Below are positions 835 to 49,483 of a stretch of DNA of 64,000 nucleotides, in pieces. The notes beneath the pieces were generated by a model. It made no database searches. It was not told the DNA's origin and saw only the letters and a program-made list of their open reading frames with translations. The stretch spans positions 4,493-68,492 of the forward strand of contig CAWFZJ010000016.1 in assembly GCA_963820205.1 (NCBI GenBank). Reading direction: 5' to 3'. This stretch comes from an uncultured Verrucomicrobiae bacterium. Lineage in GTDB: Bacteria; Verrucomicrobiota; Verrucomicrobiia; Limisphaerales; UBA11358. A program made the translations under genes and the position numbers. Within the stretch, counting starts at the first letter, position 1, and every line of letters begins with the position of its first letter.

Positions 835-1644
835 ATGTCTGAAACCGGCGATAAACAACAGGCAGCAAAACCAAAAGTTCGTTGGGTGCATACACTCAGC
901 GGGCTATGGAGTATTGAAACCTACGGTATTGTCGAATTTCTACGAGTCCATTCAGTATGTCGTTGGATAGTGGGCACCCTTGGTGTCGCAACTTGTGCCA
1001 TGGCGTTCGCCACTTTGGCGTTTGACGTCAAGATTCTAGGTTTTACTCTTTCATTTCTGCCATTTGTTTTCCTTGGGCCGTTGTTTTTATACCTCGCAAC
1101 CCTTTCTGGTCAACATTTTGAAGTGACGTTTCCACCCATACAAGCGGCGCAGGAGAGAGAGAAGGCGGAAAAGAAATTTGAAGCAACTAAGACGGTAGAG
1201 GATGCACTCAAATTGGACCTATCCAGATTAAACGAATATTACGTCATTAACCAAAGCCAAGCGCGATCCAGCTTTCGCTGGGCCGTTTTCTCCATGCTGC
1301 TCGGTTTTGGAACGATCATCTCAGGGATTTGGCTGTTCTATTTTCGCGGCGGTCAACCTGACACTTTCATGGCATCGCTCTCGACAGTAGCAGGCTGCGT
1401 CGTGAATTTCGTATCGGCGCTTTTTCTCTACTTGCACTCAAAAATACAGACATGTTCCCTGCACTACTACGAGCAGTTGTCTCGATTGCAGAATCTCTCG
1501 ATTGCCATTCGACTTGTTGAGTCGCATGAAGACATAAACGCACGACAGGATGCGCGTAATCTGGTCATTCGTGAACTTGTGTCAGGCGCGCAGCCATCGC
1601 TACAGAACCAAATTGTGAAGCCTCTCGCGACGATAGAGCGTTAA
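835..1644 (+). CDS. four-TM membrane protein, C-terminal half resembling SLATT / TRADD-N-associated 2TM effector domains
   Basis: This is a 269-aa ORF that is visibly AT-richer than its neighbours. It has two N-terminal TM helices, a charged helix, then LNEYYVINQSQARSSFRWAVFSMLLGFGTIISGIWLFYF...VAGCVVNFVSALFLYLHSK...YYEQLSRLQ. The family assignment rests on remembered pattern only. Confidence 0.7.
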   Translation: MSETGDKQQAAKPKVRWVHTLSGLWSIETYGIVEFLRVHSVCRWIVGTLGVATCAMAFATLAFDVKILGFTLSFLPFVFLGPLFLYLATLSGQHFEVTFPPIQAAQEREKAEKKFEATKTVEDALKLDLSRLNEYYVINQSQARSSFRWAVFSMLLGFGTIISGIWLFYFRGGQPDTFMASLSTVAGCVVNFVSALFLYLHSKIQTCSLHYYEQLSRLQNLSIAIRLVESHEDINARQDARNLVIRELVSGAQPSLQNQIVKPLATIER

Positions 1645-1648
1645 GAAT

Positions 1649-4600
1649 CTACTTCGCCATTGCCAGTTCGGCGGCAGGGGCGGTGGTTTCCACCGACGGC
1701 GCGGTTTCGCCGGTCTTGTGGAATTTCACGCTGACGATCTTGCTGATGCCGCGCTCCTCCATCGTCACGCCGTACAGCACGTCGGCCATGCCGATGGTGC
1801 GTTTGTTGTGCGTGATGACGATGAATTGCGAGTTGGTGATGAACCGCTGCAGCACCCGGACGAAACGGTTGATGTTCGATTCGTCGAGCGGCGCGTCCAG
1901 CTCGTCCAGCACGCAGAACGGACTGGGCTTGACCTGGTAAATCGAGAACAACAGCGCCACGGCGGTCATGGTCTGTTCGCCGCCGGACAGCAGCGAGATG
2001 CTTTGCAGTTGTTTGCCCGGGGGCCGCGCCATGATTTCGATGCCGCTCTCCAGCACGTCGTTTTCATCCGACAAAATCAGGTCCGCCTTGCCGCCGCCGA
2101 AGACCTCGGTGAACATCAGGCGGAAGTTTTCCCGGACCTTTTCAAACGTCTCAATGAACATCTGCCGCGTCTGCACGTTGATGCGGTTGATGACTTCCAG
2201 CAGTTGCGCCTTGGCCGAGACCAGGTCGTCGTGCTGCTTGCTGAGGAACTGGTAGCGCTGCTCGGTCTCCTCGTATTCCTCGATGGCCACGAGGTTCACC
2301 GGGCCGATTTCGTCGAGCTTCTGCTGCAACGCCTCGATCTGCTGCCCCACGGCGTTCCAATCCGTGGCCGCGCCGGCGGCGGCCATTTCTTCCGGCGTCA
2401 TCACATGCACCTTGGCCGGGCCTTCGTCGGCAAACGTGATGGTGATGCACTCGCTGCGCACGTCGTCGAGGTTGAGATGATATTTCTGCTGGATGCGCTC
2501 GCGCAGGTTCTGGACGGACATGTTTTTCTGCGCCAGTTCCACGTCCAGGGCGCCGCGCTGTTCCTGCAACTGGGTCAGCCGGCTGCGTTGTCCGCGCAAA
2601 TTTTCCTCGCGCGTGGTCACGTCGGCTTCCTGCGATTGTTTCCGCGCCAGCAATTCGGCGGTTTGCGCGTTCACCTGGTCGCGCTCGTGCTGCAAACGCC
2701 CGATTTGCGCCTGGGAATCCTGGATTTCCGATTCCGCCTGCTCCTTGCGGCTGATGAAGGACGAAACTTCGGCGCGCCGCTGCTCGACCGCCTGGGTCAG
2801 CTCGCGGATGCGTTGTTCCAGCGATTGCTGCTGCTGGCGGAACGACGCCAGCATCTGTTCCTCGGACGCGAGGGCGACCTTGCTCTCGGTGAGGGCGGCA
2901 TGGGCGGCATCGCGCTGCTGGCGCAAATTTTCCAGTTCGGCCGTGAGCGCGGCGACCTGTTCCTGGCCGGCGCGTTCGCGGGTTTCCAGTTCGTTCAACT
3001 GGACCGCCAGCGCGTTGCGTTTCTGCAAACCTTCCTGTTCCTGCGCGGCGAGGCTCTGGACTTCAAAAACGACCGTCTCGATTTTCTGGTGCAGCAGCCG
3101 GTTGGAATTTTGCAGCGCGTTGAACTCGCCTTCGCGCGTGGCGATGGCGACTTCCTGCTCGCGCAATTCCGTCTGCGCCTGCTGCAAGCTGGCCTGCAAC
3201 TCCGTCTGCTCGCCCAACAGCGCGCCGCGTTTGCGGCTCATGTCGGCGACGCGGAGCTGGACTTCCGTCAGCTCGCCGTGCAGTTCGGAGATCTGGTTTT
3301 TGCGGCCGAGAATCGAGGCCGGCCCCTTGGGATTGCCGTTGCCGTTCAGATAACCGCCGGTATAGACACCGTGCCGGCTCAGCAAATCGCCGGTCAACGT
3401 GACGAAATCGCAGCCCGCGTGGCCGTTCTGGACCTGGGCCGTGGCGGTGGCGAGGTCGGACGCGATGAACGTGCGGGCCAGCAACGCCTTCAGAAGTTTT
3501 TCCACCGACGGCTCGGCCTGGACCACGGTCAGGGCGTGGATGATCTGGCCTTTTTGCAGGCCGTTTTGAACCACGTCGAGGCCGCCGCCCGGCGCCATTT
3601 CGCCTTCAAACGCAAGCTGTTTGGAATCGTAGGGCATCGCCAGGGCCGCGACGCTGGCGCGGCCGGATTTGTTCGTGGTGAGGTCGGCGATGATTTCCTG
3701 CGCGGATTCCGGCTCGCTCGGTCAGAACGATCTGCAAATGGTGGCCGAGCGCGTTTTCAATGGCGACGACGTACTGGTCGGGAACGCGGATGCGGTCGGC
3801 GAGCGAGCCGATGACGGTGCGCGACTGGCGCAAGGCGGCCTGGGTGCCCGCGCTGAAACCTTCGTGCGAACCTTCGAGCTGTTCGAGCACGTTCAGGCGC
3901 GAACGTTTCTCGGCCTGCGCCTGCAAAAATTGGTCCTGCTCGGCGGACGATTCCTGCAACTCCACCTGCAGTTCGCGCAACCGGTTTTGCCGCTGCTCGA
4001 CCGAGCCGCGCTTGGTCTGCGCATTCAGCTTTTCCACCTCGACGCTCGCGGTGAATTCGTGCAGGCGCGCCTCCAGCCGGGTGCGTTCCTCCTCCAGTTG
4101 CAATTTTTCGGCGGAAAGCTTTTCGAGCCGGATGCTGTTGCCCTGCTTTTGCAAATCGAGCGCGGTGATTTCGTTGCGGATGCGCGATAGATCCTGCGCC
4201 GCGGTGAACGCATCGGCCTGCGCCTGGCGCAATGACTCCTGCCGCTGGCGCAAATCGTCCTCGACCGTGTTCAACGCCCACTGTTTCTGCTCCAGCGCCA
4301 CGCGATGTTGCAGGAGCGCGCTTTCCGAGGCGGCCAGCCGCTCCGTCACCGCCTGCAATTCGGCGGACGCGGCGTGGCAGCGTTCCTCGGCCTGGGTGAT
4401 GTCCGCCAGCGCCTTGGTGTTTTGCGACGCGAGTTCGCGCAGGCGTTCCTCGTTGAATTGAATCCGGCTTTCGTGCCGGTCGGCTTCGCCCTTCAATTCC
4501 AGGCTGCGCTGCTGCTGGGCGGCCACTTCGTGTTCGAGTTCGGAAAGCCGTTCGCGCAACTGCTTGATTTCGTCCTCGCACCGCAGAACGTTCGGCGGAA

Positions 4601-5390
4601 CCCGTTGCAATTTCATCGCGCAACCGTTCGGCGGTGGCCTGCTTCTCGGTGATCTCGGCCGCAGCACGTCGAATTGATGGCGCGCGAGCTGGGTGTCGAG
4701 GTGCTGGAGTTCCTGGGAAATTTGTTTGTAGCGGCGCGCCTTGCCGGCCTGGCGCTGGAGCGACCCGATCTGCCGCTTCACTTCGCGGATGAGATCGGCG
4801 ATGCGCAAAAGATTCTGGTCGGTGTATTCCAGTTTGCGGAGCGATTCCTTTTTCTGGCTCTTGTATTTCGTGATGCCGGCGGCTTCCTCGAAAATCATCC
4901 GGCGGTCTTCGGGTTTGCTGGAAAGAATCTGCGTGATGTGGCCCTGCGCCAGGATGCTGTAGCTGGTGCGGCCCACGCCCGTGCCCATGAACAGTTGCTG
5001 GATGTCCTTGAGCCGGCACGCGGTGCGGTTGATGAAATACTCGCTGTTGCCGTCGCGGAAAATCCGGCGCGTGATGGTGACCTCGTTGTAAGCCATCTCG
5101 ACGCCCGCCGCGCGCAGGTGGTCCTGGTCCATGTCGCCCAGCGTGAGCGACACCTCGGCCATGCCCATCGGTTTGCGTCCGTCGGTGCCGTTGAAAATGA
5201 CGTCGGCCATTTCGCCGCCGCGCAAAGCCTTGGCGGATTGCTCGCCCAGCACCCAGCGGATGGCATCGGAAACATTGGATTTGCCGCAGCCGTTGGGGCC
5301 GACAATGGCAGTCACGCCGGGCTGAAAATTCAGCGAAGTTTTGTCCGCAAAGGACTTAAACCCCAAAAGCGTTAAATTTTTGAGATACAT
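1649..5390 (-). CDS. smc: chromosome segregation protein SMC, reading frame interrupted (ORFs 3606..5390 and 1649..3637)
   Basis: The N-terminus reads MYLKNLTLLGFKSFADKTSLNFQPGVTAIVGPNGCGKSNVSDAIRWVLGEQSAKALRG (Walker A). The coiled coils, hinge, signature motif LSGGEQTMTAVALLF and Walker B CVLDELDAPLD lie in the second ORF. The frame switches near 3713-3722, and a locally out-of-frame stretch lies at about 4578-4662. Confidence 0.9.
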
Positions 5391-5761
5391 GACTTATGAC
5401 TTTCGTTAAAAAAACCAAAATTGCCGGTTAATGTAAAGCAAAAAACCACAATATAAAGCACACTACGACCCTTGTGGCACAACTAATTGGTGAGGAACCA
5501 TGGTTTGATTTGTGCCAACAACCGCTATTTTTTAAACTGCTAAAACTACCTTGCTCTTATACGACTGGAAGGCGATTTCGTCAACTGGTTTTGCGCAAAA
5601 AATTAGCAGCAGTGTCTGTTTTGCCGGAGCGCGGATTGTCCTCAATCCGCAGCGGCTGGATCGGACGTAAATGCTGCGAGTTGGGACAACTCGCGCTCCA
5701 AAAAATCAGTTGACATGATTTGAGGCTTAGACCAGCTTATCCGCATCCGTTGATACAACGG

Positions 5762-5876
5762 TCTCATGCAGAGTGGCTGAGGGACTGGCCCGATGACGCC
5801 ACGGCAACCGGCCCCGAATTCGTTCGGGGCGACAGGTGCCAAATCCAGCCCCGGCGGGTGTCGGGGGAAAATGAGA
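5762..5876 (+). promoter_or_regulatory. SAM-I (S-box) riboswitch aptamer
   Basis: The sequence is tctcatgcagagtggctgagggactggcccgatgacgccacggcaaccggcccc..ggggcgacaggtgccaaatccagcc..gaaaatgaga. It carries the S-box signatures GAGGGA-UGGCCC-AUGA-GCC-CGGCAACC and GGUGCCAAAUCC, closed by P1 tctcat/atgaga. Confidence 0.9.
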
Positions 5877-5896
5877 AGAGCGCACGAATTTTTTTC

Positions 5897-5929
5897 AGCC
5901 CCTTCTCGTCATGAGTCGGGGCTTTTTGT
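5897..5929 (+). terminator. intrinsic terminator / expression platform of the SAM riboswitch
   Basis: The stem agcccc..(loop)..ggggct is followed by tttttgttt. The loop segment cttctcgtcat can alternatively pair with the 3' P1 strand atgagaag, giving an antiterminator logic. Confidence 0.7.
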
Positions 5930-6041
5930 TTGCATGAACAAATCGTGCCTGCGTCGTGGCGAAGTCCTCGTGCTCGAAATCGAGAAATGAAAAGCCGAGG
6001 ACGAGGCAGGAGCACGCGCCGACCGAATGAATTGAAATTTT

Positions 6042-7298
6042 ATGAGTGAACATCACGGTTTCATGAAGGCGCTCAAGTGCCGCGAGTGCGGGCGGGAATA
6101 TCCGCTCACCGCCACGCACGTGTGCGAGTTCGACTTCGGCCCGCTCGAAGTGGTTTATGATTACGACCGCATCAAGAAGTCGCTGACCCGGGCGGCGATT
6201 CAATCGCGCCCGCATTCCATGTGGCGTTACCGCGAGTTGCTGCCGGTGGCGAACGACCCGACGGTCGGTCTGCAGGTCGGTTTCACGCCGCTCGTGAAGG
6301 CGGACCGGCTCGCCAAAAAACTCGGCATCCGCGAATTGTGGATCAAGAACGACACGGTCAATTATCCCACACTGTCATTCAAGGACCGCGTCGTGAGCGT
6401 GGCGTTGAGCCGGGCGCGCGAACTGGGCTTCGACACCGTCGCCTGCGCCTCGACCGGCAACCTGGCCAATTCCGTCGCCGCCAACGCCGCGTCCGCCGGA
6501 TTGAAATCCTACGTGTTCATCCCGTCGGATTTGGAGCAGGGCAAGATCATCAACTCGCTCGTCTATGGCGCGAACGTCATCGGCATCAAGGGCCATTACG
6601 ACGAGGTGAACCGCCTGTGCGCCGAGATCGCGGGCAAGTTCGGCTGGGCGTTCGTGAACGTGAACATGCGGCCGTATTACGCCGAAGGCTCCAAGAGCAT
6701 GGCGTATGAAATCGCCGAGCAACTCGGCTGGCGGCTGCCGCGGCACACGGTCGTGCCGATGGCGTCCGGCTCGTTGCTGACGAAAATCCAGAAAGGCTAC
6801 CAGGAATTCGTGAAGCTCGGCCTTGTTGCGGAAAGCGAGACGTCCATTCACGGCGCGCAGGCGACGGGTTGCTCGCCCATTTCCACCGCGCAAAAGGCGG
6901 GCCTGGATTTTTTCCGGCCGGTCAAGCCGGACACGATTGCCAAATCGCTCGCCATCGGCACGCCGGCGGATGGTTTCTACGCGCTCAAGGTGATGAAGGA
7001 CACCGGCGCGGCGGCGGACGACGTGACCGACGATGAAATCCGCGACGCCATCAAATTGCTGGCGGAGACGGAGGGCATTTTTGCCGAGACGGCGGGCGGC
7101 GTGACCGTGGGCGTGGCGCAGAAACTCATTGCGTCGGGCAAAATTCCGCGAAATGATTCCGCCGTGCTGTGCGTCACCGGCAACGGCTTGAAGACGCTCG
7201 ACGCCGTGGCCGGCCACGTGGGCAAGCCGCGCGAAATCAAGCCGAGCCTGCGCGAGTTCGAGGCCCTGCTGGCGCATGAGGAAAAAGTGAATGCGTGA
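6042..7298 (+). CDS. thrC: threonine synthase-family PLP enzyme with N-terminal zinc ribbon
   Basis: This is a 418-aa ORF. It has CRECG..C at the N-terminus and the PLP-lysine motif YPTLSFKDRVVSVAL, followed by ACASTGNLANSVAANAASAGL. It is colinear with the ThrC family and sits under SAM-riboswitch control. Confidence 0.9.
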   Translation: MSEHHGFMKALKCRECGREYPLTATHVCEFDFGPLEVVYDYDRIKKSLTRAAIQSRPHSMWRYRELLPVANDPTVGLQVGFTPLVKADRLAKKLGIRELWIKNDTVNYPTLSFKDRVVSVALSRARELGFDTVACASTGNLANSVAANAASAGLKSYVFIPSDLEQGKIINSLVYGANVIGIKGHYDEVNRLCAEIAGKFGWAFVNVNMRPYYAEGSKSMAYEIAEQLGWRLPRHTVVPMASGSLLTKIQKGYQEFVKLGLVAESETSIHGAQATGCSPISTAQKAGLDFFRPVKPDTIAKSLAIGTPADGFYALKVMKDTGAAADDVTDDEIRDAIKLLAETEGIFAETAGGVTVGVAQKLIASGKIPRNDSAVLCVTGNGLKTLDAVAGHVGKPREIKPSLREFEALLAHEEKVNA

Positions 7299-7340
7299 AC
7301 CCGCTTCACATCGCGCTTCGTCTGTGTTAGCGTAAAAATC

Positions 7341-7661
7341 GTGAAGACGATTCCTCAAGGCCTTTTGGAAAAAGCCGTTGAACGGTTGAAAGCCGAGTTT
7401 CAGCCGGAGGAAATATATTTGTTCGGATCTCACGCTTGGGGCACACCGACGGACGACAGCGACGTGGACTTGATGGTTATCGTTCATGACAGCAAAGAGC
7501 GTCCGATTTGCCGGATGCAGCGGGCCCACCGCTGTCTGCGCGGGATGGGGTTTGCCAAAGATGTGCTTGTTCCCACCCGCGCCCAGGTTGACCGCTACAA
7601 ACATCTGCGGGCTTCCTTGTTTCACCAAGTCCTCGCAAAAGGCCGCAAACTTTATGGATGA
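7341..7661 (+). CDS. nucleotidyltransferase-domain protein (MNT-type antitoxin)
   Basis: It starts at GTG. The minimal NTase motif is IYLFGSHAWGTPTDDSDVDLMVIV. It overlaps the following HEPN gene by 8 nt. Confidence 0.85.
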   Translation: MKTIPQGLLEKAVERLKAEFQPEEIYLFGSHAWGTPTDDSDVDLMVIVHDSKERPICRMQRAHRCLRGMGFAKDVLVPTRAQVDRYKHLRASLFHQVLAKGRKLYG

Positions 7662-8067
7662 GGCAGCGACAGAACTCGTGCGCGAATGGCTCAAACGTGC
7701 CGACCACGATTTGCGTTCTGCGCGGTTGCTGTCGTCATCGGAAGACCCGCTGCTGGACACGGCAATTTACCATTGCCAGCAAGCGGCTGAAAAATCTCTT
7801 AAAGCGTGGTTGCAATTCAAAGATGATCCATTCTCCAAAACCCACGACATCGAAGACTTGGTGGAACGGGCTTCGGACCTCAATCCTGATTTTGGAAAAC
7901 TTGCCAAAGCCGCGTCTGTGCTGACGCCCTATGTTTCCGCATTTCGGTATCCCGGTGGCTTTGGTGAATCCATGCCGACGCGCGAAGAATTTGATGCGGC
8001 GTTGCAACACGCTCAGGTCATTTACGATTTTGTGTTGCATCTGCTTCCAAAGGCGGCCAAGCCATGA
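7654..8067 (+). CDS. HEPN-domain protein (toxin partner of MNT)
   Basis: The 137-aa ORF begins at an internal ATG of ORF 7486..8067. The sequence MDEAATELVREWLKRADHDLRSARLL...YHCQQAAEKSLKAWL...AFRYPG is typical of HEPN proteins paired with minimal NTases. Confidence 0.85.
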   Translation: MDEAATELVREWLKRADHDLRSARLLSSSEDPLLDTAIYHCQQAAEKSLKAWLQFKDDPFSKTHDIEDLVERASDLNPDFGKLAKAASVLTPYVSAFRYPGGFGESMPTREEFDAALQHAQVIYDFVLHLLPKAAKP

Positions 8068-8075
8068 ACACATTT

Positions 8076-8174
8076 GACGCCGTGGACGGCCACGTGGGCA
8101 AGCCACACGAAATCAAGCCCAGCCTGCGCGAGTTCGAAGCGCTGCTGGCGCATGAAGAAAAAGTGAATGTGTAA
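8076..8174 (+). pseudogene. duplicated 3' end of the thrC-family gene (99 bp, no 5' part)
   Basis: It is identical at 90 of 99 positions to 7200-7298. It encodes DAVDGHVGKPHEIKPSLREFEALLAHEEKVNV*, against DAVAGHVGKPREIKPSLREFEALLAHEEKVNA* in the intact gene. Confidence 0.9.
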
Positions 8175-8214
8175 AATGTTTGCGTTGTTGCGCCCGTTTT
8201 AAGAAATTGAATTT

Positions 8215-8937
8215 ATGGTCATCAGTCTGGCATGTCCAAGTTGTGGCAAACAAGCCACGGAATACGATGAAAATAAATGGTCATGCCTCCATTGCGGCAA
8301 CAAATTTGTTTTTGTTCCCCCAACTTCACCACAAACCAATAATTATGTGCAGAACACGGTTAATGTAGTTGGGCAACCAACTTATGAACTAGATGTTCAA
8401 CGAGCAAAACCCGCGAAGCCTATAATTAAAACTCAATACGAACACAATCCAGAAGCGTTTTCATATCCTCCAGAACTCTTTTTAGGCGTTGAAGAAATTG
8501 ACATCGGACATCTCGGCTATGGCACACAAAATTTACAAAAAGCAGTTGAGCGAAACCATAACAGCAAAATTATTTGGACTTTTTGGAGTATTTTATTTGG
8601 AATTTTAACTTTTTTCGGACTAACAGCAGGTTCTTGGCTTCTTATTTGTATTTTTCCTGCCGCTATCAGCGTAATTAACTTGTGCATTCGTTTTCGAGAT
8701 ACCAAAAAAATTAATTTGCTGCTTAAAAAAACCGAAATGAAGCGGCAAGGATTTGAACAACAAAAAATAGATTTCGAAGCTAGAAAAAACGAAAAGATTA
8801 CTGTCGGCTATCAACCTATTTGTCCTTTTTGTTCGGCAGAAGTTAATGATATTTCTACAGGATTAACGCATTGTCATAAGTGCGGCAAACAATTTCATTA
8901 TTCAAATGAGCGTTCGTATCCAATCAAGTTAAAATGA
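8215..8937 (+). CDS. hypothetical membrane protein with N- and C-terminal zinc ribbons
   Basis: This 240-aa ORF is conspicuously AT-rich. It has CPSCG..(13)..CLHCG at the N-terminus and two adjacent TM helices (IIWTFWSILFGILTFFGL / WLLICIFPAAISVINLCI). A CPFC..(14)..CHKCG motif lies at the C-terminus. Confidence 0.75.
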   Translation: MVISLACPSCGKQATEYDENKWSCLHCGNKFVFVPPTSPQTNNYVQNTVNVVGQPTYELDVQRAKPAKPIIKTQYEHNPEAFSYPPELFLGVEEIDIGHLGYGTQNLQKAVERNHNSKIIWTFWSILFGILTFFGLTAGSWLLICIFPAAISVINLCIRFRDTKKINLLLKKTEMKRQGFEQQKIDFEARKNEKITVGYQPICPFCSAEVNDISTGLTHCHKCGKQFHYSNERSYPIKLK

Positions 8938-8964
8938 TTGTATAGAAAAATTAAAATTTAATTT

Positions 8965-9054
8965 ATGCCAAAAAAAGTCCGCATCCCCACGCCGCTCCGC
9001 AAGTTGACCAACAACGAGGAGCGAATCGCCGTCAACGCCGCCATTTGCCTTTGA
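8965..9054 (+). pseudogene. duplicated 5' end of the CysO/MoaD-type carrier gene
   Basis: It reads MPKKVRIPTPLRKLTNNEERIAVNAAICL*. Region 8947-9043 matches 10016-10112 at 90 of 97 positions, including the AT-rich leader. Confidence 0.85.
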
Positions 9055-9079
9055 GCCGGATTGCCAGTAGAATTCTCGT

Positions 9080-9343
9080 ATGAAAACATTGACCGTGCAG
9101 GAAGCCAGCCAAAATCTGGGCGAGTTGGTGCATTGCGCCGCCGACGGTGAGGAAATCACCATTCACGATGGAGCCTGCACGGTTTTGCTCCAGCCGGTTG
9201 CCGCTCCGGTCAGCAAACACCTCAAAGGACGCGAAGCCCTGCGGCAATTGCAATCGCAATCGCGGCTCACGACGGCACAGGCTGAAAGTTATTTGCGGGA
9301 AGTTCATGCCGAACGCTTGGCAGACCAGCCTTGTCCGTGTTAA
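9080..9343 (+). CDS. Phd/YefM-type antitoxin-like protein (no adjacent toxin)
   Basis: The N-terminus MKTLTVQEASQNLGELVHCAADGEEITIHDG has the Phd/YefM pattern. It is followed directly by a second antitoxin gene rather than a toxin. Confidence 0.65.
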   Translation: MKTLTVQEASQNLGELVHCAADGEEITIHDGACTVLLQPVAAPVSKHLKGREALRQLQSQSRLTTAQAESYLREVHAERLADQPCPC

Positions 9344-9352
9344 ACTATCAGC

Positions 9353-9592
9353 ATGAAAACGATTTCAACATCGCAGCTTCGTTCGCAGACGCGCTCGTTG
9401 GTGCGCACGCTGGCGGGTGGCAAATCCGTGTCGCTCACCTATCGCGGCCACAAGCTCGCGAACATCTGGCCGTTGAAATCAAAGAATGGCGTTGGCGCTG
9501 ACGACCCGCTTTACCGTTTCCATCGTCTGGCCGACAAGCTCGCAAAGCCGTTGACGGACCGCGAAATAGACCGGCTCGTTTATGGCGGCTGA
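9353..9592 (+). CDS. Phd/YefM-type antitoxin
   Basis: It reads MKTISTSQLRSQTRSLVRTLAGGKSVSLTYRGHKLANIWP. The 3' end overlaps the vapC start by 11 nt. Confidence 0.7.
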   Translation: MKTISTSQLRSQTRSLVRTLAGGKSVSLTYRGHKLANIWPLKSKNGVGADDPLYRFHRLADKLAKPLTDREIDRLVYGG

Positions 9593-10001
9593 ACCGCTCT
9601 TCATTGACAGCGGCGGCTTTTACGCCCTGGTATCGGCAGAAAGCGCGACGCATGCGGACGCGGTCGCCATCATGGAAGAATCCCGACGCGGGCGTCGCCG
9701 GGCGGTGACGACGGATTACGTTTTGGACGAAACCGCCACGCTGTTGCGCGCCCGTGGATTGACAAAGCAGTTGAAGGAGTTTTTATGGCTCACGGAGGCG
9801 TCACAGGCATTAAACATCGAATGGATGACGCCCGACCGTTTTGCAGCGGCCCGGACATTCATGTTGAAGCATCTGGATCAGGAATTTTCGTTCACGGATT
9901 GCGCGAGTTTCATCGTGATGAAGGAACTCCGGCTCATTGACGCGCTGGCGACGGATAAACATTTTCGCATTGCCGGATTTAATCCGTTGTTGTTGGAATG
10001 A
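9582..10001 (+). CDS. vapC: PIN-domain toxin VapC
   Basis: It reads LFIDSGGFYALVSAES...TTDYVLDETATLL...FSFTDCASFIVMKEL...ATDKHF. The acidic PIN residues are in their expected order. Confidence 0.85.
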   Translation: MAAEPLFIDSGGFYALVSAESATHADAVAIMEESRRGRRRAVTTDYVLDETATLLRARGLTKQLKEFLWLTEASQALNIEWMTPDRFAAARTFMLKHLDQEFSFTDCASFIVMKELRLIDALATDKHFRIAGFNPLLLE

Positions 10002-10033
10002 ACCGGTTTTGCACCAAAATTGAAATTTAATTT

Positions 10034-10309
10034 ATGCCAAAAAAAGTCCGAATCCCCACGCCGCTCCGCAAGTTGACCAACAACGAGGAGCTGGTCGAAG
10101 TCAACGCCGCCACCATCGGCGAGGCGATCGTCGAATTGCAGACGCGCTTCCCCGGCATCCAGGAACGGCTCGTGGATGAAAAGGGCGAGGTGCGCCGTTT
10201 CGTGAACGTGTATGTGAACGAGGAGGACATCCGCTTCCTCAAAAACCGCGAGACGCCCTTGAAAGACGGCGATGAAATCAGCATCATCCCGGCGATTGCG
10301 GGCGGCTAG
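10034..10309 (+). CDS. MoaD/ThiS-family sulfur-carrier protein, CysO-like, C-terminal GG
   Basis: The 91-aa product ends in IIPAIAGG. It aligns by eye over its whole length with M. tuberculosis CysO (..SIPTILRPHTGG..RFVNIYVNDEDVRF..GDSVTILPAVAGG). Confidence 0.85.
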   Translation: MPKKVRIPTPLRKLTNNEELVEVNAATIGEAIVELQTRFPGIQERLVDEKGEVRRFVNVYVNEEDIRFLKNRETPLKDGDEISIIPAIAGG

Positions 10310-10348
10310 ACACAATTTTTAATGTTTAGTTCTTAATTTTAAATTCCT

Positions 10349-10636
10349 ATGGCCACAACCAAGAAAAAACTCCCAGTCACCAAATCCACCACGCCCACGC
10401 AGCGCCGCCTGTGGCTGATGTTTCCGCCCAAGCTCATCAAGAAACCGCTCGTCTGGGAAGTCGGCCGGAAATTCAAGGTGGTCACCAACATCCGCCAGGC
10501 CAGCGTGACGGATGAAATCGGGGTCGTCTGCCTCGAACTCGACGGCCCGCGCGACGAAGTGAAGGCCGCCATCGCGTGGCTGGAAAAAATCGGCGTCAGC
10601 GTCGAGCCGGTGGAAATCAGCGTGGTGGAAAGCTGA
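10349..10636 (+). CDS. NIL-domain protein
   Basis: The sequence LWLMFPPKLIKKPLVWEVGRKFKVVTNIRQASVTDEIGVVCLELDGPRDEVKAAIAWLEKIGVSVEPV fits the NIL pattern of the MetN C-terminal domain. Confidence 0.7.
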   Translation: MATTKKKLPVTKSTTPTQRRLWLMFPPKLIKKPLVWEVGRKFKVVTNIRQASVTDEIGVVCLELDGPRDEVKAAIAWLEKIGVSVEPVEISVVES

Positions 10637-10753
10637 CACGGAGCGCGGCTGTCCCAGCCGCTGCAGCCCGGGATACAGAGGAGCTGACCAACCGGTTCCG
10701 TTGCCCGACCGCATTCCAACCTGCTGCGCCTGGGACAGGCGCGCTCCGGCAAA

Positions 10754-10788
10754 GCAAAACGGCGCGGCGATTTGCCGCGCCGTTTTGC
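10754..10788. terminator. perfect hairpin between convergent NIL gene and atpC
   Basis: The hairpin is gcaaaacggcgcggc-gattt-gccgcgccgttttgc. The T-runs are short on both strands. Confidence 0.55.
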
Positions 10789-10800
10789 TTCTACAAAAGT

Positions 10801-11211
10801 TTACTTCCGCCGCCGGCGTTTGACCTTGAGCTGGGTCGCGGCATGCAACAGCGCGGCTTGAATGTGCGCGGCTTCCACGTCGGTGATTTTTTCGGCCAGG
10901 CGCGCTTCGGCCCGCTGGCGGGCTTCCTCGGCCCTGGCTTCGTCAATGTTTTCGGCGCGAATCGCCATGTCGGTAAGAATCGCCACGCGATCGCCGGTCA
11001 CCTGCACAAAGCCGTCGCCGACGGCGAGGAACACCGTGTCCTGTCCCTTTTGCGCGACGATTTCGCCCGCGCACAGTTGCGTCATCAGCGGCACGTGATT
11101 CGGCATGATGCCCATCTCGCCTTCAACGCCGGTCAGCGTGACCATGTCCACGTCGTCGGAGTAAATTTTCGCCTCCGGCGTGACAATTTCCAGTTTGAGC
11201 GTATTGGCCAT
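10801..11211 (-). CDS. atpC: F1 ATP synthase epsilon subunit
   Basis: It reads MANTLKLEIVTPEAKIYSDDVDMVTLTGVEGEMGIMPNHVPLMTQL. The ORF track extends it to a GTG at 11238, and I prefer the ATG at 11211. Confidence 0.85.
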   Translation of the reverse strand: MANTLKLEIVTPEAKIYSDDVDMVTLTGVEGEMGIMPNHVPLMTQLCAGEIVAQKGQDTVFLAVGDGFVQVTGDRVAILTDMAIRAENIDEARAEEARQRAEARLAEKITDVEAAHIQAALLHAATQLKVKRRRRK

Positions 11212-11234
11212 GTTCAGCGCGTTAAATCGCGAAA

Positions 11235-12657
<1,423 letters not shown>

Positions 12658-38701: not shown

Positions 38702-38758
38702 GAAGTTTGGTCACGATCCGGTTTGGGCAAAGAGTAATTTCACCAAAATTGCTTTGAT
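38702..38758. repeat. direct repeat, copy A, upstream of the 38794 gene
   Basis: It is identical at 47 of 57 ungapped positions to 39544-39600. Confidence 0.6.
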
Positions 38759-38793: not shown

Positions 38794-39525
38794 ATGAAAC
38801 GACCCACAGCGGAGACAGTCCTTGGCATCCTGACGTTATTGCTGGTCAGCCTCAACCCTTTATCGGCGGAAGACATCACCACCCTGGACGGTCAAAAATA
38901 TACCGACGTCCGGGACGTGAGTCTGAAACCCGGCGGCCTGTTTTTCGTCGTCGGCACGGGCGATTCCGTCAAGGGTGTCAACGTCCCTTACACCAATCTG
39001 CTGGACGAGGTGAAGGAGAAGTATCATTACGATCCCTATGAGGTATCCCTGGCCTTTGCCCGGCGGAACCAGCCGATTATTTTGACCAAGAACCTGGCCT
39101 TCTCGATGGATAACCTGGAAGCGGCCAAGAAAAAGGCGAAGGAGGAAAAGAAGCTGATGGGCTTCATCATGGTGTGGGACTACTTTTTCGTGCGCTCCCA
39201 CCCGATGCATTCGAGCAGCAACGGCGCCCTGGCGCATTTTTACGATGTTTTTCATGACAGCCTGGTACTGGTGTTTGTGCGGCATGAGAGCGAGCTGGGC
39301 CTGGTTCCTGGCGCGGTTAGGGCCGGCTTTAGCGGGCCGGACGAAGGCGGTATTGCGCCCAACATGGCGGTGGTGACGGCAGATTGTTCGCAGTTGGTCT
39401 GCGAAATCCCCTGCGGCGGCAAGGAATATAACCCCCGGGTCCGGGAGCAAATCTTCCGCGAGAAGATTGCCGTGATCAATGCCTTCCTGAAGGCGCAGAA
39501 AAAGGAGACCCAGGCCAGCCAATGA
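38794..39525 (+). CDS. secreted hypothetical protein
   Basis: This is a 243-aa ORF. The signal peptide is MKRPTAETVLGILTLLLVSLNPLSAED. Confidence 0.7.
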   Translation: MKRPTAETVLGILTLLLVSLNPLSAEDITTLDGQKYTDVRDVSLKPGGLFFVVGTGDSVKGVNVPYTNLLDEVKEKYHYDPYEVSLAFARRNQPIILTKNLAFSMDNLEAAKKKAKEEKKLMGFIMVWDYFFVRSHPMHSSSNGALAHFYDVFHDSLVLVFVRHESELGLVPGAVRAGFSGPDEGGIAPNMAVVTADCSQLVCEIPCGGKEYNPRVREQIFREKIAVINAFLKAQKKETQASQ

Positions 39526-39543: not shown

Positions 39544-39600
39544 GAAGTTCGGTCACGACCAGGTTTGGGCCAAGAAAAATCTCTCCCCAATTGCTTTGAT
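39544..39600. repeat. direct repeat, copy B, downstream of the 38794 gene
   Basis: See copy A at 38702-38758. Confidence 0.6.
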
Positions 39601-39685: not shown

Positions 39686-40334
39686 GTGGAGCATCGTGCG
39701 AACCGCTTGCGGTGCTGCCCGGCTCGACCGCAAAACAGTCCCGGCACTCGCCACGATGCCTGCCTTGCGTCGCTGGCTTACGCAGGGCGGGCGTTTCACC
39801 GGCCGGGCGGTGAAGGCGAATGGAAGCTGTTAATCATGCTCGCCTATTTCACCGGGGCGCGGCTTTCCGATTGCTGCCGGATGCAATGGGAAGGCGTGGA
39901 CTTGACCGAAGAAACCCTGACTTACACGCAAGCCAAGACCGGCGCGAAAGTGACCGCCCCGCTTCACCCTGACTTGCTGGCGCGATTGAACAAGCTGGCG
40001 GGGACAGACAAGCCGGAAGTGTTCATCCTGCCGCACATGGCGAATTTGCGGCCCGGCGGAACGCCACGGGCTTTCCGAAACCTTCAAACGCATCATGCGG
40101 AAGGCGGGCGTGGATTCACAGACGGTGAAGGGCGCGGGCAATCAGATGTTTTCCCGCCGTTCATTCCACGCCTTGCGCCACAGCTTCACAAGCGCGCTGG
40201 CCAATCAAAACGTGTCCGCTGAATTGCGGATGAAACTCACCGGCCACAAGACGGAAGGCGAGCATCAAAAATACACGCATCACGAAATGGACAATCTCCG
40301 CGCCGCCGTCCAAAAAATCCCGTCTCTGGGCTGA
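39686..40334 (+). pseudogene. tyrosine recombinase/integrase, 5'-truncated and frameshifted
   Basis: The catalytic-domain motifs are split over two frames. WKLLIMLAYFTGARLSD..VDL..YTQAKTG lies in ORF 39686..40222, and SFHALRHSFTSALAN..LTGHKT..YTH lies in ORF 40095..40334. No N-terminal core-binding domain is present. Confidence 0.75.
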
Positions 40335-40423: not shown

Positions 40424-40750
40424 ATGAACGGCTCTTTTGAGATTCGGGAATTCGTTGAAAACGGACGCTCGCCCTACGCCGAGTGGCACGACACTTTGGA
40501 CAGCGTGACGGCAGAGCGGGTTGACAGATATATGCTGCGGCTGGAACAAGGCAATTTCGGCGCGGTCAAAACATTGCCAGCCGGTGTCTTTGAAGTGCGA
40601 ATGGATTTTGGGCCGGGCTATCGCGTGTATTTTGGACGCGCAGGCCGCGCCATCGTCATTCTGCTTGGCGGCGGCAGCAAACGACGGCAGGACGCCGACA
40701 TTGCCGCCGCCGTGGAACGCTGGAAACGATACAAACAAACGAAACGATAA
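40424..40750 (+). CDS. RelE/ParE-superfamily addiction-module killer protein
   Basis: It reads FVENGRSPYAEWHDTLDSVTAERVDRYMLRLEQGNFGAVKTLPAGVFEVRMDFGPGYRVYFGRAGRAIVILLGGGSKRRQDADI. This is the typical putative addiction-module killer pattern. Confidence 0.8.
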   Translation: MNGSFEIREFVENGRSPYAEWHDTLDSVTAERVDRYMLRLEQGNFGAVKTLPAGVFEVRMDFGPGYRVYFGRAGRAIVILLGGGSKRRQDADIAAAVERWKRYKQTKR

Positions 40751-40751
40751 A

Positions 40752-41072
40752 ATGATTACAACACGGTCTTACCACGAAACAATTGTGGCGCGGATAAAAC
40801 GCGACCGCGAGTTTGCGCGGCTGTTTTACGCCGGCGCGGTGGAAATGATTTTAGAAGGCGAAACCGCCGGGGCGCTTTCCAGACTCCGGGATTTGGTGAA
40901 CGCTCAAATCAGCTTCAAAGAACTGGCGCGGCAGACCGGCCTGGGGGAAAAATCGCTTCACCGGATGCTGGGTCGCAACGGCAATCCCACCGCGCACAAT
41001 CTCGCCGCCATTCTGCGGAGCGTCGCCGAAGATTTGCAGATCAAGCCGCGCGTGGAACTGGCAATGGCGTAA
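40752..41072 (+). CDS. HTH addiction-module antidote protein
   Basis: It starts 2 nt after the toxin stop. The HTH region is ..ISFKELARQTGLGEKSLHRMLGRNGNPTAHNLAAILRSV. Confidence 0.8.
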   Translation: MITTRSYHETIVARIKRDREFARLFYAGAVEMILEGETAGALSRLRDLVNAQISFKELARQTGLGEKSLHRMLGRNGNPTAHNLAAILRSVAEDLQIKPRVELAMA

Positions 41073-42069: not shown

Positions 42070-42143
42070 TGGAGCGGGTGAAGGGAATCGAACCCTCATC
42101 TCAGGCTTGGGAAGCCCGCATTCTACCACTGAACCACACCCGC
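42070..42143 (-). tRNA. tRNA-Gly (anticodon CCC)
   Basis: The reverse complement is GCGGGTG TG GTTC AGTGGTA GAAT G CGGGC TTCCCAA GCCTG AGAT GAGGG TTCGATT CCCTT CACCCGC T CCA. It folds as a cloverleaf with encoded CCA and a 7-bp acceptor stem. Confidence 0.9.
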
Positions 42144-48440: not shown

Positions 48441-48635
48441 CTACCTGTAAATGCCGCCGATTGGGCAAAAGGGACAATCTTTTTTTGCGGCAGATGGGGT
48501 GTTTGACACGAATTACACTAATTATCACCAATTCAGATGGAACTGATTTGTCATTCCCGGCGCGAGCGTCAGCGTAAAGCTATGCCACGCGGCAGGCTCG
48601 CGTAAAACTTCGCCACGCGGCAGGCTGCGTGAGCA

Positions 48636-49445
48636 TTGGCCATGTCCGGTGTCCAAATGAACATGCAAGTGCCAGAACGCGCGGAGCCGGATGCACCGCA
48701 CCCCGGGTCGAGAGCCTTCACTTTGATCGAGTTGCTTGTGGTCATCGCCATCATTGCCATTCTGGTGGCGTTGCTGCTGCCGGCGCTGTCAGGAGCCAGG
48801 GAGAAGGCTCGAAGCGCCGCGTGCAAGAATCTCCTGAGACAAATCGGCCTCGGACTGCAAATGTATGTTCAGGACAATGGCTGTTATCCGCCAATGGCGG
48901 AGCGGCGCACCAGTACATTGTGCTTTGACCGATTATACCCTTATTATCCAGTAAGCTGGACCAATGCGTCATGGAACTGTCCAACCTACATCGCCAACAA
49001 TGGAATCGTTTCCCGGGACCGAGTCATGACTAATTCTGCGGGCATCAGCTACTCGTATAATTGGATGGGTATTGCCACCGGCTGGTCAGGCTGCCCCAAA
49101 TCCATTTACCAATTACATCTGGGTTTGGGTCACCTGCCGAAGAACAGCAAGAAAGAATCGGGCGTTGGAGCGCCCAGCGAGATGTATGCGGTTGCGGATG
49201 CTCGATCCAGGGCTGCTGGGCCGGGAATTGCCGGGCAGATCAAGATAACGCCCTGGTCTTTGGCGGGTGAAGTAGCTCCGCCGCATGGGCAGGGTTACAA
49301 CATCCTATTCTGCGACGGGCACGTAGTTTTGGTGAAGCGCAGTGACTATTTGTATCCGCCGCGAACCGCATCCAACTGGAATTGTGACAATCAACCACAC
49401 CCGGAGGCGTGGGCACCCGTGAATTTGTGGGCGGTGCAAAATTAG
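48636..49445 (+). CDS. prepilin-type N-terminal domain / DUF1559-like protein
   Basis: It reads [42 protein letters not shown] and ends ..[14 protein letters not shown]. An ATG is also present at 48642. Confidence 0.8.
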
Positions 49446-49483
49446 TATGCGGTTGAAGGACCACGCAGCAGGGCGCGTGAGCA

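Follow-up and report, generated by a model that had tools for sequence, protein, structure and literature searches.

Insertion with long target duplication has been described for restriction–modification gene complexes (Furuta, Abe and Kobayashi 2010; PMC2853133), for which a cycle of repeat-mediated invasion, amplification and release was proposed in that work. Homologous recombination is likewise known to swap cassettes between conserved flanks, in the minimal mobile elements of Neisseria (2007), as presented where PMC3787668 cites them. Here we analysed a stretch of 64,000 nucleotides (the window) from a soil Verrucomicrobiota bacterium, in which genes of a methionine-synthesis operon are separated by inserted genes and by partial copies of the neighbouring gene ends. 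An earlier note on this DNA had known of no described mechanism that gives such a pattern without an integrase; the restriction–modification insertions provide one (PMC2853133). We propose, with a probability of roughly 0.6, that the 4-nt joint between thrC (metM-like) and metO is a hotspot at which cassettes are stacked by homologous recombination, with no integrase needed, a reading drawn from sequence comparison.

The operon is preceded by a SAM-I riboswitch aptamer at 5761–5877 (80.1 bits with Rfam RF00162, for which the gathering score is 44.4) and a terminator hairpin at about 5890–5921 (terminator-like site at 5904–5921); the riboswitch is kept in relatives with and without inserts at the joint alike. 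The first gene (6042–7298) encodes a ThrC-family PLP enzyme (PF00291, 3e-68; TIGR00260, 279.7 bits), which is probably a MetM-type homocysteine synthase because it has a SAM riboswitch and a sulfur-carrier neighbour. That neighbour, metO (10034–10309), encodes a MetO/CysO-like sulfur-carrier protein of the ThiS/MoaD family (PF02597, 1.6e-18) with a C terminus that reads AIAGG, ending in GG, and the last operon gene (10349–10636) encodes a NIL-domain protein (PF09383, 2.3e-11). A perfect 17-bp inverted repeat at 10752–10790, found by inverted-repeat and terminator searches, forms the terminator that separates the operon from atpC, which converges on it; no terminator was found inside the array. 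The aptamer, the repeat copies described below and all annotated genes of the locus are on the plus strand, in agreement with the orientation that the earlier note gave for the inserted ORFs. No recombinase gene is present at 5.5–11 kb of the window, and attC-like folding was not found in the repeats (z of −1.3 to −1.7). Integrase fragments lie about 30 kb away in the window, at 39686–40334.

Between thrC and metO, the window has the layout T–MNT-HEPN–T′–ZnR–M′–Phd-Phd-PIN–M. T is the 3′ end of intact thrC (7178–7299) and T′ a partial copy of it (8054–8175), together a direct repeat of 122 nt with 86% identity, the cores of which (7200–7298 and 8076–8174) are identical at 90 of 99 positions, with 9 differences. 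M is the 5′ end of intact metO with its leader (10016–10112) and M′ the partial copy with leader (8947–9043), identical at 90 of 97 positions (97 nt, 93%). Both repeats had been reported in the earlier note and were recovered by our repeat search; the whole 64 kb has just four families of direct repeats that reach 40 nt, and these two are thus not chance matches. The AT-rich leader motif recurs at 6030, 8949 and 10018 as one repeat family and, by reading, at 8199–8214, which accounts for all four of its noted sites (thrC, the gene at 8215 and the truncated and intact carrier genes); outside these sites it is seldom found in the window (5 matches against 0.26 expected). T′ encodes a mini-ORF of 36 amino acids (8064–8174), the ATG of which overlaps the HEPN stop (ATGA), and M′ encodes one of 29 amino acids (8965–9054).

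The T copies enclose an MNT–HEPN toxin–antitoxin cassette (MNT, 7341–7661, PF18765/PF01909 and the MntA model; HEPN, 7654–8067, PF05168), and the M copies enclose a Phd-Phd-PIN cassette (Phd-like, 9080–9343 and 9353–9592, weak PF02604; PIN/VapC, 9582–10001, PF01850). Three cassettes, each bounded by duplicated ends, had been claimed; this is correct for these two blocks but not for the gene at 8215–8937, which merely lies between T′ and M′ and has no duplicate pair of its own. It encodes a double zinc-ribbon membrane protein with no family above cutoff in Pfam and further profile models, and its GC content is 33–40%, against roughly 60% for the flanks. The same array recurs in an ENA contig (L081; 99.4% identity over 7243–12646) and in a contig of the Logan collection (L082, run ERR11523654; 99.88% over 7319–9018); the exact zinc-ribbon protein was found only in these two, and the 36-amino-acid mini-ORF is annotated as a gene in both.

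We surveyed 160 related Limisphaerales loci, 126 of which have a complete thrC-to-metO interval. The joint is empty in 35 of these, with the thrC stop separated by 3–12 nt, mostly TTTT, from the ATG of metO, and thrC-stop-TTTT-ATG-metO is the ancestral joint. The remaining 91 carry inserts of 20 bp to 4.6 kb with very diverse content between conserved flanks; relatives therefore do not share one fixed gene order, and the earlier inference that cassettes accumulate at this junction is supported by the comparison. Scanning 1.79 Mb for direct repeats (45–250 nt, spaced 0.25–5 kb) placed 54 of 81 in the hotspot. Cargo is co-oriented with the operon throughout and consists of toxin–antitoxin pairs, immunity-type proteins and lipoproteins; Pfam matches in plus-strand ORFs of occupied sites include PIN, PIN_3, NYN, ParE, Gp49/HI1420, DUF4258/DUF2283, MNT/HEPN, Imm32, WapI, SUKH, DUF4279 and DUF4304, among others, with no integrase or transposase, and minus-strand ORFs of these sites have no Pfam matches. 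The leader before metO is present only in occupied sites. The surveyed loci contain 22 T′ and 24 M′ copies, and T′ is upstream of M′, with no violations, in all six loci that have both. At 45 of the 67 occupied sites, or two thirds, neither T′ nor M′ was detectable; occupancy does not therefore depend on duplication, and such sites may reflect either clean insertion into TTTT or decayed arms.

Repeat boundaries are constant within a cassette family and different between families, and the repeats span 26 to about 120 nt. An identical HEPN–T′ junction occurs in the window, L018, L070, L087, L099, L109, L118 (twice) and L141; homologous MNT–HEPN units with this junction to T′ were found in nine loci besides the window. 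The window shares its M′ break point with L057; L124 and L136 have the same M′-Phd-PIN unit, in which M′ ends, by BLAST coordinates, at or near the same point. L136 has the same three-gene Phd-Phd-PIN block after an M′, and Phd2-PIN is also present in L027, L057 and L124. MNT–HEPN lies between T copies in nine loci and between M′ copies in one (L077), and the sequence shared by the two contexts is essentially the coding sequence only. All T′ copies include the last 51–61 nt of thrC, most M′ copies include the leader and at least 26 nt of metO, and in several families T′ begins within the same stretch of about 15 nt (blastn query 116–129, 72–85 nt before the thrC stop). The thrC frame is kept open from ATG, GTG or TTG in 17 of the 22 T′ copies; in 16 of these 17 a TGA triplet overlaps the start, and in three junction classes this triplet was confirmed to be the stop codon of the cassette gene before it. 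The mini-ORF of L035 instead starts two bases past the thrC stop and continues into T′.

We postulate that a foreign gene or gene pair would enter the joint, rarely, by an illegitimate event that duplicates 60–120 nt of the thrC 3′ end (T′) or of the metO 5′ end with its leader (M′). Each unit would have arisen once through such insertion with long target duplication, and survivors would be found only where both flanking genes were left intact. A T-cassette-T′ unit would then be flanked by thrC on its left and T′ on its right, and an M′-cassette-M unit by M′ and metO, so that both arms find homology in any related genome. Once such DNA is taken up, the unit could be added by a RecA-type double crossover directly 3′ of thrC or 5′ of metO, whatever lies between, a step that the comparisons support, and arrays would therefore grow from both ends. 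The duplicated gene end would thus serve as a portable homology arm by which RecA-type recombination stacks or exchanges units, and the T/T′ and M′/M arms would also permit allele swapping, gene conversion and deletion. The co-oriented, tightly packed cargo would be read from the operon transcript. Given that insertion breaks the native stop-TTTT-ATG coupling, the T′ mini-ORF that overlaps the preceding stop and the AT-rich leader probably keep downstream genes translated. Efficient RecA recombination is usually said to need a minimum of about 25 nt; the present window arms have runs of perfect identity of only 12–18 nt, which counts against arm recombination.

Three loci appear to show single units added within T or M, as before and after states: L084 (T–WapI–M), L087 (T–MNT-HEPN–T′–WapI–M), whose T′-TAA-WapI junction matches the T-TAA-WapI junction of L084, and L124 (T–WapI–M′–Phd2-PIN–M). 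TGA followed by accggcttcac closes the first T′ of L118 and is also the left junction of the MNT–HEPN unit that comes next. Cassette relationships conflict with host relationships: the window and L087 share 99% identity in ThrC, 59% in MNT and 48% in HEPN, and the corresponding values for the window and L099 are 91%, 92% and 79%. The T′ copies of L035, L041/L140, L141, L154, L157 and L027 are 6–9 points nearer to thrC ends of other lineages than to their own. The earlier suggestion that incoming DNA carries its own copy of the gene end fits these observations, as it does the fixed junctions in many hosts. L081 differs from the window by 3 mismatches over the array (7243–10033) and by 29 in the next 2.6 kb. 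L082 differs at 2 of 1,700 positions (8138 and 8141), both in T′ and both with the state of T, a probable gene-conversion patch that would show ongoing repeat-to-repeat recombination. Recombination is read here from genomes that are 5–20% diverged.

Alternatively, each insertion could be a separate illegitimate event (staggered-break fill-in, microhomology joining or homology-facilitated illegitimate recombination), with the duplicates as passive scars and the common architectures owing to vertical descent with frequent loss rather than arm-mediated spread. Junction microhomologies of 3–4 nt (the HEPN stop TGAA against TTGAAG in thrC, and GTG in the L041 class) and the majority of occupied sites without duplicates would fit this account. 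We nevertheless consider it unlikely, as identical junctions occur in hosts with thrC sequences that differ by up to about 23% (DNA), cassette and host identities are strongly incongruent, T′ copies are nearest to thrC ends of foreign lineages and the WapI junction is common to the before-and-after trio; the conversion patch in a near-identical strain (L082) and an array ten times less diverged than its flank (L081 against the window) point the same way.

Gene 3′ ends that are used for integration and regenerated by the incoming element are classic for tyrosine-integrase islands, and the cassettes could by this resemblance be small non-autonomous integrative elements, akin to cis-mobilizable elements or satellites, served by a recombinase encoded elsewhere in the genome. 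The last approximately 60 nt of thrC and first approximately 45 nt of metO would then be att sites and the duplicates attL and attR; the portions common to all T′ and most M′ copies make a common core possible, nicking or site-specific activity could yield the clustered T′ starts, and the window does hold integrase fragments (39686–40334). However, no integrase lies in or beside the hotspot in any of the 67 occupied complete loci or in the window, repeat extents vary widely between families, and no hairpin or inverted-repeat structure was found in the repeats. MNT–HEPN is associated with T in nine loci and with M′ in one, without a shared non-coding att candidate, and two targets 4 nt apart would require two specificities. 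We regard this origin as quite improbable.

Units might also excise as circles (T × T′ or M′ × M) and enter another genome through one Campbell-type crossover at the matching gene end. This would yield the same architecture, order rule and chimeric repeat copies, and direct repeats with conversion between them are in evidence; it is a sub-variant of arm-mediated stacking, not a true alternative. We give it very little weight, as circular junctions were not seen, one crossover within 60–120 nt of roughly 90% identity should happen less often than a double crossover that has the long thrC or metO arm on one side, and the TGA and spacer that travel to the left of MNT–HEPN fit a long left arm. An error of assembly or binning (a chimeric contig, or strain variants collapsed into one), to which the long-read-type single-base indels in atpD (11231 and 11554) and the start of L081 inside T, as assemblers do at repeats, might have pointed, is effectively refuted because two independent assemblies from other data share the array, and analogous arrays occur in dozens of metagenome-assembled genomes and metagenome contigs from many studies.

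Stacking by portable homology arms can be set against four known systems. Chromosomal integrons likewise have ordered, co-oriented, mostly promoterless cassettes rich in toxin–antitoxin genes, one upstream promoter and high turnover between relatives; here, however, there is no intI, attI or attC hairpin, what is repeated is part of a housekeeping gene and recombination would be homologous rather than site-specific. The orphan toxin and immunity modules 3′ of rhs and cdiA also consist of an intact gene followed by 5′-truncated fragments of its 3′ region with different cassettes, and their common segment allows homologous recombination with the main gene (PMC3967940). In those systems the fragment encodes part of a functional toxin and recombination alters the protein tip, whereas here the protein made from thrC stays the same, the fragment is no more than an arm or a short mini-ORF, and the 5′ end of the next gene has a mirror-image series of its own. 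Minimal mobile elements, as far as PMC3787668 presents them, likewise vary in gene content among close relatives between two specific conserved genes, lack mobility genes and have their exchange attributed to homologous recombination through the flanks once DNA is taken up, but are replacement alleles without duplicated gene ends; the partial flank copies inside the present array mean that units can be added, not only replaced, and the site is in a riboswitch-controlled operon with all cargo co-oriented. Restriction–modification units inserted with long target duplication share addiction-type genes, direct repeats of more than 30 bp of which relatives have a single copy at the empty site, variable repeat length, frequent overlap of the repeats with a gene 3′ end and the lack of a transposase or integrase (PMC2853133). 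Here the cargo is instead toxin–antitoxin, immunity-type and small secreted proteins, and the same unit with the same junction in many hosts points to the repeat as a reusable homology arm; the events recur at one 4-nt operon joint, in many lineages and on both sides, to give ordered arrays.

A SAM-I riboswitch (RF00162; 5761-5877, + strand; 80.1 bits against a gathering threshold of 44.4) lies upstream of a methionine/SAM gene in the window; it was also detected in 7 relatives. Downstream, all on the + strand, are genes for a ThrC-family PLP enzyme (thrC, 6042-7298), MNT (7341-7661) and HEPN (7654-8067) proteins, an AT-rich zinc-ribbon membrane protein with no family assigned (8215-8937), two Phd-like proteins (9080-9343 and 9353-9592), a PIN protein (9582-10001), a ThiS/MoaD-type carrier with the C-terminus ...AIAGG, ending Gly-Gly (metO, 10034-10309) and a NIL protein (10349-10636). 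MNT with HEPN, and Phd with PIN, form pairs of small genes with toxin and antitoxin domains and are predicted toxin-antitoxin modules of type II/VII. Upstream of the locus lie smc and the riboswitch, and downstream the atp operon; a terminator follows the NIL gene at 10764, and none above chance was detected within the array. Because of the riboswitch and the carrier neighbour, thrC probably encodes a MetM-type homocysteine synthase with MetO as its carrier. The pairing of a ThrC homologue with a Gly-Gly-ending ThiS/MoaD-type carrier is that of the MetM/MetO thiocarboxylate route to homocysteine (Hasebe et al. 2024, as summarised in bioRxiv 10.1101/2024.10.14.618325); according to the same summary, MetM, itself homologous to ThrC, often carries the annotation threonine synthase.

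The inserted genes are associated with partial copies of the neighbouring gene ends. We refer to the intact 3' end of thrC as T and to its extra copy as T', and to the intact 5' end and leader of metO as M and to its extra copy as M'; the array thus reads T / MNT-HEPN / T' / zinc-ribbon gene / M' / Phd-Phd-PIN / M. A repeat search of the window recovered a 122-nt direct repeat for T and T' (7178-7299 and 8054-8175; 86% identity), with mismatches at 9 of 99 positions in its core (7200-7298 and 8076-8174), and a 97-nt direct repeat for M' and M (8947-9043 and 10016-10112; 93% identity). The 64 kb contain just four families of direct repeats of 40 nt or longer, and repeat and motif searches rejected a chance or low-complexity origin. 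These results recover both duplicated ends described in an earlier note made from the sequence alone (90 of 99 identical positions for T and T'), and its gene calls and its placing of all inserted ORFs in the orientation of the operon hold in Pfam and Rfam profile searches. The gene at 8215 has a GC content of 33-40%, compared with around 60% in its surroundings, and we read it as either the oldest insert or a repeat-less one. A separate 199-nt direct repeat (48613-48811 and 49461-49659; 83% identical) falls in the tandem paralogues 48636-49445 and 49484-50332 and is an ordinary tandem gene duplication.

An assembly artefact, which the earlier note had raised as a concern, is rejected, as the array is present in two independent assemblies. 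The exact zinc-ribbon protein is also encoded on an ENA contig (L081) and on a Logan contig from run ERR11523654 (L082), which match the window at 99.4% over 7243-12646 and at 99.88% over 7319-9018, respectively, so that both repeat pairs and all junctions are reproduced from other data. L081 differs from the window at 3 positions in the 2.8 kb of the array and at 29 in the next 2.6 kb. L082 has two differences in 1700 positions, 8138 and 8141, both within T' and both changed to the state of T, a comparison that points to gene conversion. Same-species genomes with other arrays were absent from the collections searched, in which the nearest other genomes have around 92-96% DNA identity. Relative to L081, the window has one extra base at 11231 and another at 11554 that break the frame of atpD (11248-12645, minus strand), and smc is split (1649-3637 and 3606-5390) where locus L002 has a single 1247-aa ORF; both look like long-read homopolymer or indel errors rather than pseudogenes. 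The segment 12659-14059 is only 93.6% identical to L081 (5454-6850) in strains that are otherwise 98-99.4% identical, which suggests an imported tract. Within it lie atpG and, in the gap to atpA, two small ORFs, one of which has an ORF6N domain; such extra small genes within an atp operon are unusual in themselves.

We compared the locus with 160 Limisphaerales loci with ThrC proteins that are 85-99% identical, obtained by scanning species-representative genomes and, separately, metagenome contigs; 126 contain a complete thrC-to-metO interval. At 35 of these the site is empty: the thrC stop codon is followed by 3-12 nt (mostly TTTT) and the metO ATG, with one T and one M each. Intervals of 13-130 nt occur at 24 loci and include palindromic and hairpin elements, 45 loci have intervals of 131-1000 nt and 22 have intervals of more than 1 kb, with a maximum of 4.6 kb. 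The window's insert (2735 nt) is among the largest, and none of its nearest relatives has identical content. The riboswitch is retained at empty as well as occupied loci. Given the variable content and the coexistence of empty and occupied loci among relatives, the thrC-metO junction is a true hypervariable hotspot. The earlier note had proposed looking for cassette variation between conserved flanks, and such variation is what we find, with inserts at the other 91 of the 126 loci. Direct repeats of 45-250 nt spaced 0.25-5 kb are concentrated here (54 of 81 in the 1.79 Mb examined).

Non-coding elements alone occupy some sites (86-95 nt in L003, L005, L014 and L015; 70-220 nt in L004, L013 and L019). 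One type is an imperfect inverted repeat of GGAGT(G/A)ATGGAG units and another consists of GC-rich REP-like palindromes (GGTAGGGACGC...GCCCTACC). At L002, L047, L058, L059, L069, L076 and L078, unrelated housekeeping genes replace metO-NIL downstream of thrC, in some cases after cassettes and a truncated M' (pnp/rpsO in L059; nadB, pyrR, pyrB and guaA in L078), and larger rearrangements may also take place at the hotspot. Over its first 130-290 nt, metO (window 10016-10310 and homologues) is unusually conserved in DNA sequence, at 94-97% identity in relatives with 87-92% identity in thrC, which could reflect frequent recombination or mRNA constraint.

The cargo survey took in ORFs of 50 aa or more from 67 occupied loci, which together hold 64 kb of insert DNA. 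ORFs on the + strand cover 89% of the insert DNA and minus-strand ORFs 48%; all Pfam matches fall on + strand ORFs and none on minus-strand insert ORFs. Between the stop codon of one gene and the start of the next cassette gene lie 0-50 nt (TAAATG in L040 and L042, for example). The matches include toxin-antitoxin genes (PIN, PIN_3, NYN, ParE, Gp49/HigB with an HI1420-type antidote, DUF4258/DUF2283 and MNT/HEPN), immunity-type genes (Imm32, WapI, SMI1/SUKH, DUF4279 and DUF4304) and others (DUF6978, DUF1828/1829, a PDZ lipoprotein, TPR and tautomerase). No integrase, transposase or other recombinase domain was detected on either strand in the window's insert or in the scanned cassette ORFs of other occupied loci. 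One insert (L137, 3874-6065) has 220-aa and 510-aa ORFs without a Pfam match; read by eye, they are possibly a restriction enzyme and an N6-adenine methylase, an identity that, if confirmed, would tie the hotspot directly to published restriction-modification cases.

Across all loci surveyed we found 22 T' copies in 18 loci and 24 M' copies in 21 loci, with up to three extra copies per locus (L070, L077 and L118). T' always extends to the thrC stop codon and begins 51 to around 120 nt before it, so that all copies share at least the last 51 nt of thrC; M' always runs from the metO start region and ends 26-95 nt into the gene. The repeat limit is constant within a cassette family across hosts and differs between families. 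Ten MNT-HEPN units in nine loci have a common junction, in which the HEPN stop (A/G)TGA is followed by three codons and GACGCCGTG..., and the Phd-PIN units of the window and L057 have one M' break point in common; L124 and L136 also carry the Phd-PIN unit, and the end of their M', in BLAST coordinates, falls at or close to this break point. Copies of both kinds occur together at six loci, where the T' copies all precede the M' copies. The MNT-HEPN cassette also occurs between M' copies (L077) and without a T' (L151), and the sequence shared by the contexts compared is essentially coding sequence alone, which leaves no space for a recombination site borne by the element. No significant attC-like or other hairpin fold was found at the boundaries (DNA-fold z -1.3 to -1.7).

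Natural before-and-after states indicate how the arrays grew. L084 reads T/WapI/M and L087 reads T/MNT-HEPN/T'/WapI/M, and the T'-to-WapI junction of L087 matches the T-to-WapI junction of L084 in sequence. L124 reads T/WapI/M'/Phd2-PIN/M; in L118 the first T' ends in TGA followed by accggcttcac, the left junction of the next MNT-HEPN unit. These layouts show single units added inside T or inside M, with the remainder untouched. Cassette and host histories also disagree: the window and L087 are 99% identical in ThrC, 59% in MNT and 48% in HEPN, and the window and L099 are 91%, 92% and 79% identical, respectively. T' often resembles the thrC end of another lineage more than that of its own locus (94% versus 86% in L035, 95% versus 88% in L041 and 91% versus 82% in L157). 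In general T' is not a simple copy of its host's T, which gives the best match for just 1 of the 22 copies; a comparison of both ends with relatives of the thrC body is confounded by the faster decay of T'. Junctions show microhomology of 3-4 nt, such as the HEPN stop TGAA and TTGAAG in thrC.

We propose that each cassette-plus-gene-end unit would have had a single origin, an illegitimate joining event in which part of a flanking gene was duplicated. It would then bear two arms matching any related genome, thrC with T' or M' with metO. A double crossover in which the right arm, T', pairs with the recipient's thrC end would give T/cassette/T'/previous content, and the mirror event through M' would give .../M'/cassette/M. 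Such two-arm homologous exchange would explain the arrays, the strict order of T' before M', the fixed unit junctions in diverged hosts, the chimeric or foreign repeat copies, allele swapping and conversion between copies, all without an integrase; the crossover mechanism, the way in which DNA enters the cell and the initial joining events are inferred. Its weak points are the 45 of 67 occupied sites without a detectable T' or M' and the arms of the present window, which are perfectly identical only over short runs. Fewer of the observations fit the rival readings, which are a site-specific recombinase supplied in trans, separate illegitimate insertions with vertical descent, and Campbell entry by circles. 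The earlier note's inference of a recombination hotspot at the junction is supported; for exchange by homologous recombination in the flanks, the before-and-after loci, the incongruent identities, the foreign-type T' copies and the low-divergence array give indirect support.

The spare ends may also affect translation. Closely spaced or overlapping genes are commonly translationally coupled. At empty sites metO lacks a leader of its own and lies 4 nt past the thrC stop codon, which implies that the two genes are probably translationally coupled there. In 17 of 22 T' copies the thrC frame is open from an ATG, GTG or TTG, and in 16 of these the start of the mini-ORF overlaps a TGA triplet, confirmed in three distinct junction classes as the stop codon of a real upstream cassette gene; the exception, in L035, opens two bases past the thrC stop and continues into T'. 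The window's T' mini-ORF encodes 36 aa (8064-8174) and opens with an ATGA overlap at 8064-8067, its M' forms a 29-aa mini-ORF, and the T' of L087 keeps the frame despite a 9-nt deletion. At occupied sites an AT-rich leader (AAAATTGAAATTTAATTT; 10016-10033 in front of the window's metO) that is absent from empty sites precedes metO and the M' copies. The hotspot, around 5% of the sequence, holds 27 of 95 matches to the leader motif, which is rare elsewhere. A genome-wide translation-start motif is ruled out only partly: the motif is concentrated in the hotspot, yet also precedes a few other genes (for example, atpD in L057). In a lenient test the leader gave a closer alignment to the native thrC end than its shuffled versions, and it may be either a decayed thrC end or a convergent initiation region. 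We hypothesize that T' mini-ORFs and the leader keep downstream genes translated once native coupling is broken. More broadly, and with a probability of about 0.35, the spare ends would be selected adapters rather than scars, serving both as portable homology arms that stack cassettes and as translated mini-ORFs that pass ribosomes on.

Repeats and partial gene copies were also seen at other sites. Upstream of the riboswitch, the 3' end of smc (window 1637-1900) has a partial second copy around 2 kb away in three relatives (L002, 1632-1710 and 3585-3851; L004, 1761-1850 and 3720-3980; L006, 1429-1657 and 3744-3986). These may represent a second gene-end duplication site or a different process, the latter because the L002 copies bracket IS3-type transposase ORFs. 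At the far end of the operon, a partial, diverged NIL copy in L020 (11655-11762; residues 12-47, 58% identical), around 1.1 kb downstream of the intact gene, hints at a similar duplication. The flank repeats of L084 appear, judging from ORF translations, to be intergenic repeat elements. In the window, 57-nt direct repeats (38702-38758 and 39544-39600; 82% identical) enclose a gene for a signal-peptide protein (38794-39525), which adjoins an apparent frameshifted tyrosine-integrase gene (39686-40334), a HigB/HigA-like pair (40424-41072) and a tRNA (42073-42143); we read the region as a degraded integrative island, possibly another repeat-bracketed insertion.

Variable hotspots in bacteria often lack a recognisable mobility gene, and how genes enter them is an open question. 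The anatomy of this one is unusually clear, with a 4-nt target, dozens of natural before-and-after states and two mirror-image series of units, and its junctions mark the mobile unit as a cassette joined to part of the adjacent gene. If that part is a reusable homology arm, toxin-antitoxin and immunity genes could spread between diverged lineages by host recombination alone, and cassettes could accumulate in an essential operon under riboswitch control while leaving it intact. This reasoning also suggests a rule for designing additive, marker-free gene insertions in bacteria without genetic tools. Were the adapter reading true, Limisphaerales would have a widespread, integron-like gene-capture platform without integrase or attC, possibly also at other gene ends such as smc in L002, L004 and L006; downstream methionine genes would stay expressed, and selfish toxin-antitoxin and immunity genes would come under SAM-riboswitch control.

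The hotspot resembles an integron in its co-oriented, toxin-antitoxin-rich, promoter-proximal array, but no intI integrase gene lies beside the array and its boundaries are gene-end copies rather than attC hairpins. A site-specific integrative island at a gene end would be expected to have an integrase in or beside the element, and none was detected at the hotspot loci scanned. The att repeats of such an island would share one crossover core; all T' copies have at least the last 51 nt of thrC in common, and the repeat limits range from 51 to around 120 nt (T') and from 26 to 95 nt into the ORF (M'). The earlier note knew of no described mechanism for such a pattern without an integrase. This is not correct, as insertion with long target duplication (Furuta et al. 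2010, PMC2853133) matches: its repeats exceed 30 bp, are single-copy at the empty site, vary in length and occur without mobility genes. Here, likewise, the flanking repeats (99-122 nt and 97 nt) exceed 30 bp, the repeat is single-copy at 35 empty related loci and an insert of less than 20 kb lacks mobile-element genes. The published cargo is restriction-modification, whereas that of the hotspot comprises toxin-antitoxin, immunity-type and other genes; the literature searched held nothing specific on toxin-antitoxin insertion with gene-end duplication. Neisseria minimal mobile elements, as cited in PMC3787668, also have variable content between two fixed genes without mobility genes, and the array resembles orphan rhs/cdi modules (PMC3967940), in which truncated gene-end copies are each tied to a different cassette. 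What appears to be new is the combination of two-sided additive stacking at one 4-nt operon joint with a homology arm reused across diverged hosts, together with placement in a SAM-riboswitch operon and a possible translational role of the spare ends.
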